Program-made: the position numbers and the translations under genes
Assembly (NCBI GenBank): GCA_013166775.1
Contig: JABLTJ010000008.1
Location: forward strand, 32,001-96,000
Length of the DNA stretch: 64,000 nt
Source: Promethearchaeati archaeon
GTDB lineage: Archaea; Asgardarchaeota; Heimdallarchaeia; Heimdallarchaeales; Heimdallarchaeaceae
Direction of reading: 5' to 3'
Notes under the pieces: model-generated
Database searches by the model: none
What the model saw: only the letters and a program-made list of their open reading frames with translations
What the model was told of the DNA's origin: nothing
Shown here: positions 31,765 to 54,857 of the stretch, one piece after another
Layout of the letters: the number at the start of each line of letters is the position of its first letter
How positions within the stretch are numbered: the first letter of the stretch is position 1

Positions 31765-33402
31765 ATGGATGAAAAGAACTCCCAAAAACAGCATAAGTCT
31801 AGATTTTGGAGAATAACAGGCACATCACTTTATTTCTTCACACTAGTTGTCTTAGTTGTTGGTTTAATTTACCTCATATGGTCTTCGAGATTAATCATAA
31901 TGGAGAGAAGACTTTTTCCAAATGATTTTTCAATTGGTGCAGTCATACTGAACTTCTTATCACTACTTGTTGAGGTTATAGGAATTCTCTACACTGTTAT
32001 GCTCTTCAAACATATAGGAACAACAAGTTACCACTCTCCCATTGATGTTAACCAAAAGAGTATTACTATCGAAGAATATCCTCAAGTAAGTGTATTAATT
32101 CCTATTCATGAAGCCATCCCTAGTATTTTGGAATTAACTCTAAAATCAGTAATAAATTCCAATTATCCAAGAGAAAAAATAGAGATTATATTAGGCGATG
32201 ATACGAACGAAAATTATGACAAACTTCCTCAAATCAGAGAATTAGCATCAAGATATGATTCTTCTTACATACATGATATCTCCAACTTGAATTTTAAGGC
32301 GGGAATGCTAAACATTATGTTAAAAGAGATTAAATCAGAATTCATAGTTTTCCTTGATTATGATCATAAAATGTCCAAGAACTTTCTAAAACAATCTATT
32401 AGTATTTTAGTTGAAGATGATAAATTAGCATTTGCTCAATCTAAAGTGAATTTTTACAATATTCAATCAAAACTCCAAATATGGGAATCAGTAATGTATG
32501 CGCAGTTTTTCGAAATTTTCCAGCGTTCAAAGAATCAAAGACAAACAGTACTCTTTAATGGTTCAACTGCCTGTTTTCGTAAAAAAATCTTGGACGAAAT
32601 TGGAGGAGTACCTATCAACACGTTTACTGAAGACATAGATCTTTCGATACAAATATTGTCTAAAGGCTATTCATCTAGATTAATAGATGATTATGGAAGT
32701 TTAGGATTAATTCCCGCTAACTTTTCTTTATTGCTATCCCAAATATTACGCTGGGCAAAAGGTAGTATGCATACGCTGAAGAAAAGATGGAGAAAAATAC
32801 TTTTTTCCAAATTATCATTTTATGATAAAGTGGATCTTTTCTTTAGTACCTCTCTCTTCTTCATAGCGTCCTCTATGTATTTGACGATTTTATTCTACGT
32901 AATTATGTTTTTCACAGGGAACAAAGCGGTAAGATTACCTATACAGGATTTTCTCCCTTTAATCATAATGCCTATATCCTTCGTTATTGCCTATCAGATT
33001 TCTGGTTTAATTGCAATAATTTTTGCAAGAAAAAATGGCTTAACCCACATGAAAATTTATGATTTAGTATTATTCTCAATTATTGCTTTAGCCCTAAATC
33101 CATTTACAGTATATGCCGTTTTAAAGACTGTTTTTAGAGTTAGACCACCAGAAAAAGGAAGAGATACTTGGAATGAAAAAATTCCAATTATTCCATTTTC
33201 ATTACTCTTTACATTATTGGGAGTTGGAATACTGATTATTGCATTCTTTGATTTCTTTGGAGGAACTAAAACACTATGGTTAGTCCTGTTTTTACTAGGG
33301 TCATCGTTAATAGCAACTTTTCCTGTCTCCCTTTATTACCACCTTACAACTCGCCATAACAAACCTTATTTTTACCAACATTTATCACAAGATATTGAGT
33401 AG
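31765..33402 (+). CDS. Processive GT2 glycosyltransferase, cellulose-synthase-like (copy 1)
   Basis: GDD, FKAG, DYD, FNGS, TED, QILRW; N- and C-terminal TM helices; no PilZ domain. Confidence 0.88.
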   Translation: MDEKNSQKQHKSRFWRITGTSLYFFTLVVLVVGLIYLIWSSRLIIMERRLFPNDFSIGAVILNFLSLLVEVIGILYTVMLFKHIGTTSYHSPIDVNQKSITIEEYPQVSVLIPIHEAIPSILELTLKSVINSNYPREKIEIILGDDTNENYDKLPQIRELASRYDSSYIHDISNLNFKAGMLNIMLKEIKSEFIVFLDYDHKMSKNFLKQSISILVEDDKLAFAQSKVNFYNIQSKLQIWESVMYAQFFEIFQRSKNQRQTVLFNGSTACFRKKILDEIGGVPINTFTEDIDLSIQILSKGYSSRLIDDYGSLGLIPANFSLLLSQILRWAKGSMHTLKKRWRKILFSKLSFYDKVDLFFSTSLFFIASSMYLTILFYVIMFFTGNKAVRLPIQDFLPLIIMPISFVIAYQISGLIAIIFARKNGLTHMKIYDLVLFSIIALALNPFTVYAVLKTVFRVRPPEKGRDTWNEKIPIIPFSLLFTLLGVGILIIAFFDFFGGTKTLWLVLFLLGSSLIATFPVSLYYHLTTRHNKPYFYQHLSQDIE

Positions 33403-47744: not shown

Positions 47745-48152
47745 TTATGATGGAGTAAATACTGCTGTACCTATTGCTGTACTTTCACCAGAAGAGAAGT
47801 TTATTGTTAATGTATATTCTATTCCAATTGTAAAAGATCCAGTAAAAACTATCTGTTTTGTAGCACCGTTTGATATCGAAAACGGTTCTGTTGAATCTAA
47901 TACAAGATACGATACTATTGGAGATGCAGATACATCCGTATACAGTATATCGTTACCTTCAGCTTGGATTGTAATAGTGACTGTATAGTTTAAACCATCA
48001 CCTGCTAAAACAACGTTGGATTCTTGAACAATTGCTTTTGGTGCTGGATTTAGCATAGGTATAACAACTAAAAATACAATTGCTGCTGCAGCTGTTACCA
48101 GAGCAATAAGTAGAATTGTTGCGATTACTGGAGATACACCACGTTTTTTCAT
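47745..48152 (-). CDS. Archaeal type IV pilin (class III signal peptide)
   Basis: MKKRG/VSPVIATILLIALVTAAAAIV prepilin cleavage motif. Confidence 0.88.
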   Translation of the reverse strand: MKKRGVSPVIATILLIALVTAAAAIVFLVVIPMLNPAPKAIVQESNVVLAGDGLNYTVTITIQAEGNDILYTDVSASPIVSYLVLDSTEPFSISNGATKQIVFTGSFTIGIEYTLTINFSSGESTAIGTAVFTPS

Positions 48153-48294: not shown

Positions 48295-49017
48295 GTGTAT
48301 GTGTTAAGATTATTGAAGAAAATGGACACTACTGCTAATATAATTTTTAGATCAATTAGCGCGATATATGAAAGCGCAATTAGTGGTAGTGCTCTTTATC
48401 CAACTTTATATTTTGAAGATAATGAGAGAGACAATACATACTATGGTTTTAGATTAAATGAGGTTATTCCTACTAGATTAATAATACGAACATATGAAGA
48501 AGGAAAAAGTTGTTTTGTTGATATGCTGTGGTTTGTGGATGATTCCAAGATCGAAGGTAAAGGTTGTGTAACATTTTACCCAAAAAGTAATGAGATCGCT
48601 GTGAAAGGAGATTCGAAGGATTTTATTTCTAAACTTCAATCTGATGCAACAATTGAAGCATGTTACAAAGATCTTATTGAACCATCTGGATTTCTGAATA
48701 AAGTAATTGTGGGTACTAAGAACTCTTGTCCTTCAAAACTCCAAAACGAAACTAAATTGAATCTTAGTAATTTACCAACAAATCTATTTGCTTTTTCCAG
48801 ATCTACTTTGAATCTAAAGAAAATCAAAGATGAATCTTATCAAGATGTTGCTATTAATGGTTTTCTTGCTGTAATCGATTTATTACACAGATCATTGGAA
48901 ATACTCAGCTCTCATGCTCAGACAAAACTAGATAGCAAAACATTCTGCATACGATGTGGTGAAAAACTCCCAACAGATTCATATTTCTGCCCAATTTGTG
49001 GAACAAAACAGGGATGA
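48295..49017 (+). CDS. Hypothetical protein with C-terminal zinc ribbon; likely ATG at 48322
   Basis: FCIRCG..LP...FCPICGTK. Confidence 0.75.
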   Translation: MYVLRLLKKMDTTANIIFRSISAIYESAISGSALYPTLYFEDNERDNTYYGFRLNEVIPTRLIIRTYEEGKSCFVDMLWFVDDSKIEGKGCVTFYPKSNEIAVKGDSKDFISKLQSDATIEACYKDLIEPSGFLNKVIVGTKNSCPSKLQNETKLNLSNLPTNLFAFSRSTLNLKKIKDESYQDVAINGFLAVIDLLHRSLEILSSHAQTKLDSKTFCIRCGEKLPTDSYFCPICGTKQG

Positions 49018-49034: not shown

Positions 49035-49370
49035 TTAAGTGTGATATAATATCTCTGCTTTTTCAATTAGTTCTAAAGTATCAGTTTGATTAGCTAGATC
49101 CCTTGCATTAGGTGAAAAATTATTTGCTACTACAAAACCTCCACTAAGATTTGATCTTTGTATTATACGTTCTATGTGAATTATTTTATCAGTACCCACA
49201 GACCTTTTCCAATCTAAAATCCACACCCCTACGAGAAGTTCTTTGATTATTATTATAAATTCGATTGAATGTTTAGGAGGTCCCTGAATCAAGGATAAAT
49301 TATGAGTAATATTTCCAAAATTCTTCAAGTATTCTAGAGCTAATTCGATTAGAGGTTTATCTCGGTCCAT
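49035..49370 (-). CDS. Mrr-type restriction-endonuclease-fold protein, probably inactive
   Basis: DWKRSVG...GFVVANNFS..A..LA matches the Mrr-cat C-terminal half; D...(E/Q)xK not conserved. Confidence 0.55.
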   Translation of the reverse strand: MDRDKPLIELALEYLKNFGNITHNLSLIQGPPKHSIEFIIIIKELLVGVWILDWKRSVGTDKIIHIERIIQRSNLSGGFVVANNFSPNARDLANQTDTLELIEKAEILYHT

Positions 49371-49902: not shown

Positions 49903-51087
49903 ATGTCTTCATCTTTGTCTAAATTTCTGAAGAAAATTGATATCAAAGAAACTGCAATTATGATTGTTATTGCAATCGCTTTATTCTTTCTTGTTAAGAT
50001 GATGTTTGGTGGTGTTTTAGGAGTATCATTGGTAGTCATAGAAAATGGACCATGTCCAAATTCTTCAATGTGTCCTACATATGATCAAGGAGATATGTTT
50101 CTCATATTCAAAAATAAACCAGAAAACATTCAACTTGGAGATGTAATTGTTTATGAATCTGCAACAGTATATAGCAGAGGAACTTTAATCATTCACAGAG
50201 TTGTTAATATTACAGTTATAACTGATACTGAGGGTGATCACTATTATTTTCTAGTAAGTGGAGATAATCCATCTTCAAATAACTATATAGATTATTATGA
50301 CTCAACAACTCACTTTATACCCTATGAAGCTGTTTTAGGGAAAACAAAACTTATCATTCCCAAACTTGGGTACGTAAAACTCTGGTTATCCATTCCAGAT
50401 TTTATCTGGCTACGTTATGTTTTAATTGCAGTACTTCTAGGCCTAGCAGTATATTTGATATTCGCACCTGATGATAAAGATAAGAAGAAGAAAGATGAAG
50501 AACAAGAGAAAACAGATGCTGAAGTAACAAAAGAAGAATCCAAAGAAGAAGATTCAAAATTTAGTTTTAAAGACATACTTAATACTTTCTGGATTAAAAC
50601 AAAGAAATTTTTTGTCGAACTTGTTACTGTTCGCAAGAAAAGAATTAAGTTAATTATTACTGCTTCAGTAATCATCTTCCTAATAATTTTCATACCGGTG
50701 CTTGACACTTTGATTAAATCACCTGGTGTCGAAACAGGAATCGATAATGTTGTTCTCTTATCAGCTACAAGCTTTATTGGAGAAGATATTGTATTTCTCC
50801 CATTCAACATCTATTTCAAACACGATGGTTCATGGAACACAGTTCTAAAGAGTTTTGAAGTGATTGGAATACAAAATGGTTCTATTTTGGCAACAATGAA
50901 ATGGGGATCGTACACTCAAATTGAAGGTGATAATATCATAGGAGGCTCTTTAATTTTCGATTCAAATCAGTTTAATGCCAATGAATCACTTACAATTAGC
51001 ATTTCTTATATTATACATTACAGATTTGGTTCAGATGTACCTCAAGTATTTGAGGATATTTTTGACCCGCCCTATTTGCAAATTTAA
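49903..51087 (+). CDS. sec11: Signal peptidase I (Sec11/S26B type) with a C-terminal TM helix and extracellular extension
   Basis: SMCPT (Ser), GDVIVY, IIHRV (His), GDN..D, IPKLG. Confidence 0.88.
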   Translation: MSSSLSKFLKKIDIKETAIMIVIAIALFFLVKMMFGGVLGVSLVVIENGPCPNSSMCPTYDQGDMFLIFKNKPENIQLGDVIVYESATVYSRGTLIIHRVVNITVITDTEGDHYYFLVSGDNPSSNNYIDYYDSTTHFIPYEAVLGKTKLIIPKLGYVKLWLSIPDFIWLRYVLIAVLLGLAVYLIFAPDDKDKKKKDEEQEKTDAEVTKEESKEEDSKFSFKDILNTFWIKTKKFFVELVTVRKKRIKLIITASVIIFLIIFIPVLDTLIKSPGVETGIDNVVLLSATSFIGEDIVFLPFNIYFKHDGSWNTVLKSFEVIGIQNGSILATMKWGSYTQIEGDNIIGGSLIFDSNQFNANESLTISISYIIHYRFGSDVPQVFEDIFDPPYLQI

Positions 51088-51124: not shown

Positions 51125-51991
51125 TCATATATTCTCTTTTATCTTTAATGGAATTTCATTAGGGGTTTTTACAGTGGTTATACCTGCTTCACTAAGTATT
51201 CTCATCTTTTCTTGAGCTGTGCCTGATTTACCATGAACAATAGCGCCAGCGTGACCCATTTGTTTTCCAGGAGGTGCTGTCTGACCGGCAATAAATCCAT
51301 AAACTGGTTTAGAAATTTCAGTTTTAACTAAATCTGCTGCTTCTTGTTCTCCTGTTCCACCAATCTCCCCAACTAGAACGATGTGCTCTGTCTGTGGATC
51401 TTCTTCAAACCATTTCAAGCATTCATTAAATCCTATCCCTTTTATTGGATCACCACCTAATCCTACACAGGTTGATTGACCAAAATCATTGATTGTTAGA
51501 TTCTGAATAATTTCATAGGTTAATGTTCCACTTCTACTTACTATTCCAACATTACCTTGTTTGCATATTTCTCCTGGAATTATACCTATCTTACTCTCTC
51601 CTGGAGTGATTATACCAGGGCAATTGGGACCAATCATTATTACATTTTCTTCCTGTACTCTTTGTTTGATTTTAGCGGTATCCTTGATTGGCACTCCTTC
51701 AGTAATAACGGTAAGCAATTCAATCCCTGCATCAATTGCTTCTAAAGCAGCAGAATAGGTGAATCTTGCAGGAATGAAAATAACAGAAGCTGTTGCTTGT
51801 GTCTCTTTGACTGCTTCTTTCATGCTATCATAAACAGGAACTCCCAAATGCTCTTGTCCCCCTTTTCCTGGAGTTACTCCTGCTACAACTTTTGTTCCAT
51901 ATTCTATCATAGACCGTGCATGAAAAGTTCCTTGTTTTCCTGTGATGCCTTGAACAATAACTCTTGTGTTTTTATCTAATATAATTGCCAT
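51125..51991 (-). CDS. sucD: Succinyl-CoA synthetase alpha subunit
   Basis: QGITG, GVTPGKGG, GPNCPG, SRSGTLTYE, MGHAGA. Confidence 0.96.
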   Translation of the reverse strand: MAIILDKNTRVIVQGITGKQGTFHARSMIEYGTKVVAGVTPGKGGQEHLGVPVYDSMKEAVKETQATASVIFIPARFTYSAALEAIDAGIELLTVITEGVPIKDTAKIKQRVQEENVIMIGPNCPGIITPGESKIGIIPGEICKQGNVGIVSRSGTLTYEIIQNLTINDFGQSTCVGLGGDPIKGIGFNECLKWFEEDPQTEHIVLVGEIGGTGEQEAADLVKTEISKPVYGFIAGQTAPPGKQMGHAGAIVHGKSGTAQEKMRILSEAGITTVKTPNEIPLKIKENI

Positions 51992-51992
51992 T

Positions 51993-53135
51993 TTAGTTTC
52001 CTCCTTTTACAAGTTCAACAATTCTTTTTGCTGCAGGTTCCATTTTTCCATAAGCGTTAATACCATTTTCTTCCAGTATCTGAATGCCCAGATCATCATT
52101 AGTACCAACAAGTCGTATCACCATTGGAACTTTAATTTCATATTTTTTTGATGCATTGATAATCCCATTTGCAACGTCATCACATCGAGTTATTCCCGCA
52201 AAGAAGTTTACAAAAATTCCTTTGATATTCTGCCTTGAAAGAATTTCCAGAGATTTCTCAATTTTAGTTTCATCAGCACCACCACCAACATCTAGAAAAT
52301 TAGAAGGTGAGCTTCCATAAAATTCCAGCAAGTCACAAGTTGCCATTGCAAGTCCAGCACCACCAGATATTATTCCAATCTCTCCGTCAAGTTGTACATA
52401 ACTTATACCTGATTGATCAGCTTCAAATTCTAAATCGGTATGTCTGTCTCTTTGAGATTTAAGATTTGCAATATCAAGTTGTCGATAATCAGCGTTTCCA
52501 TCGATAACAACTTTTGAATCAGCAGCAATTATCTGCTTATCAGGAGTTAAAATCAAGGGATTAATTTCTATAAGTGTAAGGTCTCTTTTTTGTGCCATTT
52601 TAAACATGTTAGTCATAATATTGGTGAACGAGGTTAGAGTTCGAGCTTCAAATCCAAGTTTTTTTCCAAGGTCTATGAACATGTAAGGCTGTGGTTCACT
52701 AAAAACAGAAAAATAATCTTTGTAAATTTCATCAGGATATTTTTCTGCTACCTCTTCAATGTCAACTCCACCTCGTGAACTAGCTAAAACCAGATATTTG
52801 CTAGATGCATTATCAAGCATTATAGACAAATAATACTCGTTTTCAATTTCCATTGGTTCTTCAAGCATGACTAAATCGACAGGTTTTCCTCTATGATCTC
52901 TACCAAGTATACTTTGAATATAGTCTTCTGCTTCAGATGTTTTAACTTTTTTTATCAACCCAGCTTTTCCTCTTCCTCCTGAAAGAGCTTGAGCTTTAGC
53001 CATCATGATGTCATTACCTAATTCTTCAGCAAAAGTCTTGATACTGGAAACTCCATCGTAAGCTTTGAATTTCGGAACAGGAATTCTGTTCTCTTTGAAT
53101 AATTGTTTTCCCTCAATTTCATAAAGCATTGGCAT
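51993..53135 (-). CDS. sucC: Succinyl-CoA synthetase beta subunit
   Basis: KAQ..GGRGKAG, GGVDIEE, EINPL, GAGLAMAT, NFLDVGGG, RLVGTN. Confidence 0.96.
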   Translation of the reverse strand: MPMLYEIEGKQLFKENRIPVPKFKAYDGVSSIKTFAEELGNDIMMAKAQALSGGRGKAGLIKKVKTSEAEDYIQSILGRDHRGKPVDLVMLEEPMEIENEYYLSIMLDNASSKYLVLASSRGGVDIEEVAEKYPDEIYKDYFSVFSEPQPYMFIDLGKKLGFEARTLTSFTNIMTNMFKMAQKRDLTLIEINPLILTPDKQIIAADSKVVIDGNADYRQLDIANLKSQRDRHTDLEFEADQSGISYVQLDGEIGIISGGAGLAMATCDLLEFYGSSPSNFLDVGGGADETKIEKSLEILSRQNIKGIFVNFFAGITRCDDVANGIINASKKYEIKVPMVIRLVGTNDDLGIQILEENGINAYGKMEPAAKRIVELVKGGN

Positions 53136-54290: not shown

Positions 54291-54857
54291 ATGAGCATGT
54301 TTGGTTCGTTTTCCTCATGGTTGAGAGCAAAACTAAAGAAAGAGCAAAAGGCTAAAATATTGATATTAGGGCTGGATGCAGCAGGTAAAACAACCTTAAC
54401 TCGATTTATGAGATTTGGTAGATTTGCAGAAAACCTCACACCGACCATCGGGCAAAACATTGAGTCGTTTGAATTTGAAGGATGGACTATAACAGCTATA
54501 GATGTTGCAGGACAATCACATTTTCGTTTCCTATGGGAAGCACATTATCCAGGATGTAGTGCTGTTATTTTTGTTATTGATGCAGCTGATATTGAGCGTC
54601 TTCCTGAAGCAAGAGACGTACTCAAGACTCATGTTTTTAACAACCCTTACATGGAAAATGTGCCTACATTAATCATGGCAAACAAGCAAGATCTCCCTGG
54701 AGCAGTAGAGGCCCCATTATTAATACAAATGTTAGGGTTGCATCTTGATTTGAAAGATAGAACATTCGCTGTTTTTGATACTAGTATTCTACATGGGAAG
54801 GGAATTAAAGAAGCATTTACTTGGCTTGTAAATGAACTAGATACACATCTAGAATAA
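54291..54857 (+). CDS. Arf-family small GTPase with N-terminal amphipathic helix
   Basis: ILILGLDAAGKTT, PTIG.N.E, DVAGQ..FR.LW..Y, ANKQD, G..EAF.WL. Confidence 0.92.
   Translation: MSMFGSFSSWLRAKLKKEQKAKILILGLDAAGKTTLTRFMRFGRFAENLTPTIGQNIESFEFEGWTITAIDVAGQSHFRFLWEAHYPGCSAVIFVIDAADIERLPEARDVLKTHVFNNPYMENVPTLIMANKQDLPGAVEAPLLIQMLGLHLDLKDRTFAVFDTSILHGKGIKEAFTWLVNELDTHLE

Follow-up and report, generated by a model that had tools for sequence, protein, structure and literature searches.

A Sec11-type signal peptidase fused to a membrane-anchored beta-sandwich of Spc3-like topology in Heimdallarchaeia

The fusion gene and its Sec11 half

We analyzed a 64,000-nucleotide window (positions 32,001 to 96,000 of contig JABLTJ010000008.1, GenBank assembly GCA_013166775.1; GC content of about 33%) from a Heimdallarchaeaceae archaeon. 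It holds a gene for a 394-residue protein in which a Sec11-type signal peptidase continues into a linker, a third transmembrane helix and an external beta-sandwich. By its sequence, this protein is the housekeeping type I signal peptidase of the organism, of the Sec11 or endoplasmic reticulum (ER) type. The part comprising the third transmembrane helix and the sandwich, referred to here as the module, shares topology, fold class and partner with Spc3, the subunit also named SPCS3 or SPC22/23 that accompanies SEC11 in eukaryotes. The features of the gene are as follows, in window coordinates (TM, transmembrane segment).

49903..51087, plus strand: whole gene, Sec11-type signal peptidase with a fused transmembrane-anchored beta-sandwich, 394 residues and a stop codon (from the list of open reading frames)
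49903..49953, plus strand: putative cytoplasmic N-terminal tail, Lys-rich, residues 1-17 (read from the sequence and the positive-inside rule)
49954..50016, plus strand: TM1, N-in signal anchor, residues ~18-38 (AlphaFold2 helix 14-35; aligns with TM1 of SEC11A/C)
50020..50391, plus strand: external Sec11 catalytic domain, residues 40-163
50053-50055 and 50071-50073, plus strand: Cys51 and Cys57, bracketing Ser55 in CPNSSMCP
50065-50067, 50194-50196 and 50263-50265, plus strand: catalytic codons of Ser55, His98 and Asp121, respectively
50206-50214, plus strand: N-x-T sequon Asn102-Ile-Thr of the catalytic domain
50395..50463, plus strand: TM2, running from outside to cytoplasm, residues ~165-187 (AlphaFold2 helix 165-187; phmmer alignment to SEC11A 150-175)
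50464..50637, plus strand: cytoplasmic linker, residues 188-245, with a disordered K/E/D-rich stretch, an amphipathic helix at 222-242 and the basic cluster VRKKRIK
50638..50715, plus strand: TM3, type II (N-in) anchor of the C-terminal domain, residues ~246-271 (AlphaFold2 helix 244-271)
50731..51084, plus strand: external eight-strand immunoglobulin-like (Ig-like) beta-sandwich of ~118 residues, residues 277-394 (AlphaFold2 strands within 279-387)

The N-terminal half has the features of a Sec11 enzyme. The profile TIGR02228 matched the protein with 56.9 bits, above its curated cut-off of 51.85, and a six-frame search of the genome, which is 88.7% complete, returned the fusion gene as its single match (59.8 bits). 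Human SEC11A and SEC11C were the best matches both by sequence (phmmer E values of 1.7e-8 and 4.7e-7, respectively, across residues 52-183) and by structure, where the match covered residues 7-166. The catalytic boxes S-M-x-P (Ser), H-R (His) and G-D-N (Asp) are all present and align with those of SEC11A, and Ser55, His98, Asp121 and Asp130 are invariant among 46 homologues. The protein combines an N-in transmembrane anchor, an external catalytic domain and a SEC11-like fold, and TM2 corresponds in the alignment to the hydrophobic segment at the C terminus of human SEC11A. Because the external catalytic domain on its N-in anchor retains Ser, His and Asp, the predicted peptidase is expected to act on Sec signal peptides. 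The search for homologues gave more than 50 of full length (45-88% identity), and the presence of the gene in more than 90 Asgard genomes indicates that the fused reading frame is not a product of chance.

Two Cys residues flank the catalytic Ser, as the sequence-only reading of this locus had pointed out. They covary perfectly among the 46 homologues, 32 of which have both and none of which has one alone; in homologues without the pair, the first position holds Asp or is a gap, and the second holds Trp or Tyr. This pattern suggests that an external disulfide between Cys51 and Cys57 may lie beside the active site in part of the Heimdallarchaeaceae. The sequon at Asn102 is at least 90% conserved across the same homologues, and the sandwich carries further sequons (NGS at residues 325-327 and NES at 360-362). 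The occurrence of sequons in both the catalytic domain and the sandwich suggests that the enzyme may be glycosylated.

Predicted topology of the linker and the C-terminal module

The full-length AlphaFold2 model of the 394 residues, built on a 46-sequence alignment, had a predicted local distance difference test score (pLDDT) of 80.1 and a predicted template-modeling score (pTM) of 0.71. Folded alone, the C-terminal module reached a pLDDT of 87.8 and consisted of a helix (residues 2-29) followed by eight strands. The model agrees with the layout proposed from the letters alone, in which the Sec11 domain and its transmembrane segment are followed by a charged cytoplasmic linker, a further transmembrane helix from about position 50640 and an external beta-rich domain; the predicted helix of TM3 starts at that point. 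Clusters of Lys and Arg precede TM1 and TM3, which fits an arrangement with the N terminus in, the catalytic domain out, the linker in and the sandwich out. The proposal that the C-terminal part has the topology of Spc3/SPCS3 was also borne out, in that a type II anchor and a sandwich are attached to Sec11.

Within the linker, residues 193-222 had pLDDT values below 50 and are predicted to be disordered, and both the length and the sequence of this region vary across homologues. Five homologues of 488-489 residues (P0016, P0018, P0020, P0021 and P0028) carry a RING finger (PF13639) between TM2 and TM3, and the insertion is seen in genomes G013, G019 and G020. These RING-bearing homologues lend independent support to a cytoplasmic linker. 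In the module, W334 is the single invariant Trp, conserved in 39 of 39 diverse sequences, and G342 is conserved in 38 of them.

In eukaryotes, the luminal sandwich of Spc3 wraps around SEC11 and activity depends on it, and SPC22/23 has been proposed to stabilize and position the SEC11 active site at the membrane (bioRxiv 10.1101/2020.11.11.378711). A similar mechanism may be proposed for the archaeal protein. In the predicted topology, the chain re-enters the membrane through TM2 after the catalytic domain, crosses the disordered cytoplasmic linker, exits through TM3 and ends in the sandwich on the active-site side. The sandwich would pack on the catalytic domain and TM3 would join TM1 and TM2, and sandwich and helix bundle together would stabilize the active site and hold it in place at the surface of the membrane, as Spc3/SPCS3 does for SEC11. 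On balance we favor, by a modest degree, the view that the protein works as a signal peptidase and carries an Spc3-like helper domain within its own chain, of either ancestral or convergent origin.

Two other explanations were considered, each of which we regard as unlikely. In the first, the likeness to Spc3 would reflect true homology: the module would be the precursor of Spc3/SPCS3, and fission at the cytoplasmic linker, on the archaeal line that led to eukaryotes, would have given rise to the SEC11-SPC22/23 pair, with the sequence signal erased since then. The identity of both topology and partner with those of Spc3 speaks for such a descent. In the second, the sandwich would be an accessory surface domain of the Ig-like or LEA-2/TMEM106B-like kind that binds another target, for instance lipid, S-layer, glycan or substrate proteins, or that tethers the peptidase to a different machine, and it would not act as a clamp on the catalytic domain. 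The long, variable and sometimes RING-bearing linker suggests that the two halves could move independently, as an accessory domain might; against this, the whole-chain pTM of 0.71, reached despite ~70 disordered residues, points by our own indirect reasoning to a fixed arrangement of sandwich and catalytic domain.

Distribution of the fusion

The occurrence of the module was examined with two profiles, the narrower of which was searched against 1.84 billion representative proteins and the broader against 399 Asgard genomes. The protein search gave 29 matches, mostly Sec11 fusions of 349-524 residues and otherwise short pieces, and none of them was eukaryotic. Among the Asgard genomes, 93 of 399 were matched. 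Within Heimdallarchaeia, the class to which the window belongs, the module was found in 76 of the 82 other genomes, distributed over its families as follows.

Family f1: 26 of 30 genomes
Family f2: 1 of 1
Family f3: 3 of 3
Family f4: 12 of 12
Family f5 (Hodarchaeales): 22 of 22
Family f6: 1 of 2
Family f7: 11 of 12

Outside the class, the module was detected in Asgard families f22, f24, f25, f32 and f33. None was found in families f8-f19, f21, f23 and f26-f30, as inspected in the tally, and the largest Asgard family (f20, 134 genomes) yielded two weak partial matches, which we read as spurious. Apart from partial frames at contig edges and three weak, likely spurious matches, the module lies in open frames of ~310-570 residues, and at every inspected locus the Sec11 domain shares the frame with it. 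The Hodarchaeal and Heimdallarchaeaceae modules align with each other across 126 columns (hhalign E value of 3.3e-5). No stand-alone module gene was verified among the short matches examined from the protein search or in the 399 Asgard genomes. In Heimdallarchaeia as a class, Hodarchaeales among them, the module is an obligate component of Sec11 and an ancient one.

This distribution bears on all three explanations. Eukaryotes are thought to descend from Heimdallarchaeia, the class that includes Hodarchaeales. The occurrence of the module throughout that class, in every Hodarchaeales genome as well, and its near absence from the largest Asgard family would suit a precursor of Spc3, but its presence in Asgard families outside the class shows that it extends beyond the branch nearest to eukaryotes, and the failure of the module profile to find a eukaryotic protein likewise counts against descent. 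For a general-purpose binding domain, never occurring apart from Sec11 would be unusual. In the majority of other archaea, most Asgard lineages among them, Sec11 enzymes measure ~190-280 residues and lack such a module (other Asgard Sec11 frames were mostly 190-280 residues), and therefore the helper is not a general requirement of archaeal Sec11. That most archaeal enzymes work without the domain weighs against a helper function and favors an accessory one.

Some short matches were considered as possible split modules and rejected. P0069 and P0071 are fragments open at the 5' end at contig edges, the start of P0065 falls inside TM2, and P0067 has an in-frame TAG and a frameshift with an intact paralogue adjoining. 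The last lies on a Kariarchaeaceae-like contig from a marine sediment metagenome (L012) with tandem fusion genes at 3-840 and 933-1766. In the first copy, a TGG-to-TAG change places a stop after TM2 and a frameshift precedes TM3, which makes it a decaying or a naturally split gene; the second shows no damage within the stretch that the contig covers.

Other variations were seen at individual loci. In a genome of family f8 (G001, locus L034), ~200 residues with five predicted transmembrane helices are fused N-terminally to a Sec11 without the C-terminal module. At two Hodarchaeales loci, a gene of 251-256 residues lies directly downstream of the fusion gene, its start overlapping the peptidase stop in one (L030) and lying ~10 nucleotides past it in the other (L028). 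By eye, its product resembles a GPN-loop GTPase (motifs GTAGSGKT and NLDPA).

Sequence comparison with Spc3

The sequence-only reading had also seen an Spc3 pattern by eye in the C-terminal domain and had proposed a comparison of this region with the SPC22 family. The pattern did not hold up in profile searches. The Pfam family SPC22 (PF04573) matched 0 of 46 module sequences at an E value of 10 or below and gave no match in a six-frame search of the genome. With Spc3 proteins of yeasts, two basidiomycetes and one shrimp as references, hhalign comparisons with the module gave probabilities of 0.24%, 0.20% and 0.85%, and a profile made from Hodarchaeales only gave 0.19%, so that neither Pfam nor hhalign detected significant similarity. 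The aligned segments in these four profile pairings spanned just 11-17 columns, and in global mode hhalign returned no alignment. An Spc3 profile searched over 83 genomes of the class produced four noise matches in tiny frames on contigs without the fusion, and nothing at the fusion gene. Among PDB sequences, hmmsearch with the module profile had no match at an E value of 10 or below, and the Pfam models for SPC25 and SPC12 gave in the genome only subthreshold matches like those in control genomes.

Individual motifs were compared as well. A set of 12 diverse Spc3 sequences has the motifs F-N-W-N-T-K-Q and W-D without exception. The module motif SWN, which resembles the Spc3 hallmark NWNTKQ, is limited to part of the family: of 39 diverse modules, W311 is present in 18 and N312 in 12. 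The hallmark has no conserved counterpart in the module. LTISISY was one of the by-eye matches of the sequence-only reading. With each of the three profiles that include the Heimdallarchaeaceae module, hhalign aligns a single short segment, which pairs this penultimate strand with the penultimate Spc3 strand ATLKLEWN, at a chance-level score. As the sole segment that hhalign aligns, it speaks for homology, as may the strand of W334, which, read from two alignments, appears comparable to the Spc3 strand with the invariant Trp of FWDK.

Taken together, these searches weigh against common descent with Spc3, and the absence of any link in sequence also counts against reading the module as an Spc3-like helper. 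None of the tests shows common ancestry of module and Spc3.

Fold comparison and complex prediction

The module was compared with solved structures by Foldseek. The solved SPCS3 chain (7p2p_B) ranked 12-21 with an E value of 2e-3, a TM score of 0.36-0.40 and a root mean square deviation of 9. The alignment covered the whole module, including transmembrane helix and sandwich, and the whole of the SPCS3 chain over 172 columns, which favors homology. TMEM106B, Af_0446, ApaG and GH2 domains ranked ahead of SPCS3, and in intermediate structure-search lists, crowded as they are with generic Ig-like domains, SPCS3 fell outside the best 50, an absence to which we give no weight. The structural likeness claimed for the C-terminal domain stands for the type II anchor and the beta-sandwich; as a fold match it is weak and lies behind unrelated Ig-like domains. 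That many unrelated sandwiches match better argues against homology with Spc3, and it weakens the case for a helper domain, as the predicted sandwich appears to be a generic Ig-like fold to which SPCS3 is a weak and nonspecific match.

The best fold matches favor an accessory surface domain. Against that assignment, the module matched no Pfam family, LEA_2 and TMEM106 included. A whole-model structure search found no solved chain spanning both external domains, such as a bacterial signal peptidase with domain II. Prediction of a complex between residues 1-192 and the module gave interaction prediction scores from aligned errors (ipSAE) of 0.15 and 0.27, compared with a mark of 0.32, and counts neither way. 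One further point detracts from the helper mechanism: that the sandwich touches the catalytic domain is deduced indirectly, from the pTM of the model.

Significance of the fusion

A signal peptidase with a built-in helper domain is thus the reading to which we incline, and the proposal that the gene is a Rosetta-stone fusion for the origin of the ER signal peptidase core stands as a hypothesis. Why Sec11 needs Spc3 is still poorly understood. The fusion is a concrete candidate, open to testing, for how the SEC11-SPC22/23 core arose, and structural or biochemical studies of ER-type signal peptidases could use it as a system of one gene. Liaci et al. state that the accessory signal peptidase subunits arose with eukaryotes (bioRxiv 10.1101/2020.11.11.378711). 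If module and Spc3 are homologous, SPC22/23 would be Asgard-derived and not a eukaryotic invention, and the core of the eukaryotic signal peptidase would trace back to this single-chain fusion as its ancestor. If they are convergent, the fusion would be an independent natural experiment on the role of the helper domain. No published description of an Asgard or Heimdallarchaeia Sec11-sandwich fusion was found in the literature searched.

Genes neighboring the fusion

The following genes flank the peptidase gene in the window.

47745-48152, minus strand: archaeal type IV pilin-like protein (Pilin_N), upstream of the peptidase gene
48295-49017, plus strand: protein with a zinc ribbon at its end, upstream
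49035-49370, minus strand: small protein with an Mrr-type restriction endonuclease domain, upstream
51125-53135, minus strand: succinyl-CoA synthetase alpha and beta (CoA_binding/Ligase_CoA; ATP-grasp_2), convergent, 37 nucleotides from the peptidase stop
54291-54857, plus strand: Arf-family small GTPase (PF00025, E value of 1e-43), ~3 kb downstream

The succinyl-CoA synthetase genes have no obvious functional link to the peptidase gene. Arf-family small GTPases are typical eukaryote-like proteins of Asgard archaea.

Comparison with known systems

The N-terminal 190 residues of the protein resemble Sec11 (MEROPS S26B; TIGR02228; SEC11A/C in PDB 7P2P and 7P2Q), with which they share an N-in transmembrane anchor, an external Ser-His(-Asp) catalytic domain and a C-terminal hydrophobic segment. 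Unlike typical Sec11 enzymes, the protein is twice the usual length, and its hydrophobic segment is a full transmembrane helix that is followed by the linker, a third transmembrane helix and the external sandwich. A further difference is the covarying Cys pair around the nucleophile, found in a Heimdallarchaeaceae subset of the fusions.

Within the Heimdallarchaeaceae, the RING-H2 variants of Sec11 are close relatives in design. They belong to the same gene family and have the same layout of three transmembrane segments and two external domains, and both of their flanking halves are ~56% identical to the 394-residue protein. Their linkers have ~95 extra residues, whereas that of the 394-residue protein consists of the charged stretch only.

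The sandwiches of the luminal TMEM106B or LEA-2 type (PDB 8B7D, 3BUT for Af_0446, and 1XO8) have no tie to the module in sequence or Pfam family and are not attached to a peptidase. With Spc3/SPCS3/SPC22/23 (PF04573; 7P2P chain B), the module has in common a type II single-transmembrane anchor and a sandwich of ~120-150 residues on the active-site side of Sec11, and both are physically tied to Sec11. The two differ in that no similarity between them is detectable by sequence or profile, NWNTKQ being missing from the wider module family, and in that Spc3 is a separate subunit in a complex with SPC12 and SPC25, whereas the module is covalently fused to its peptidase.
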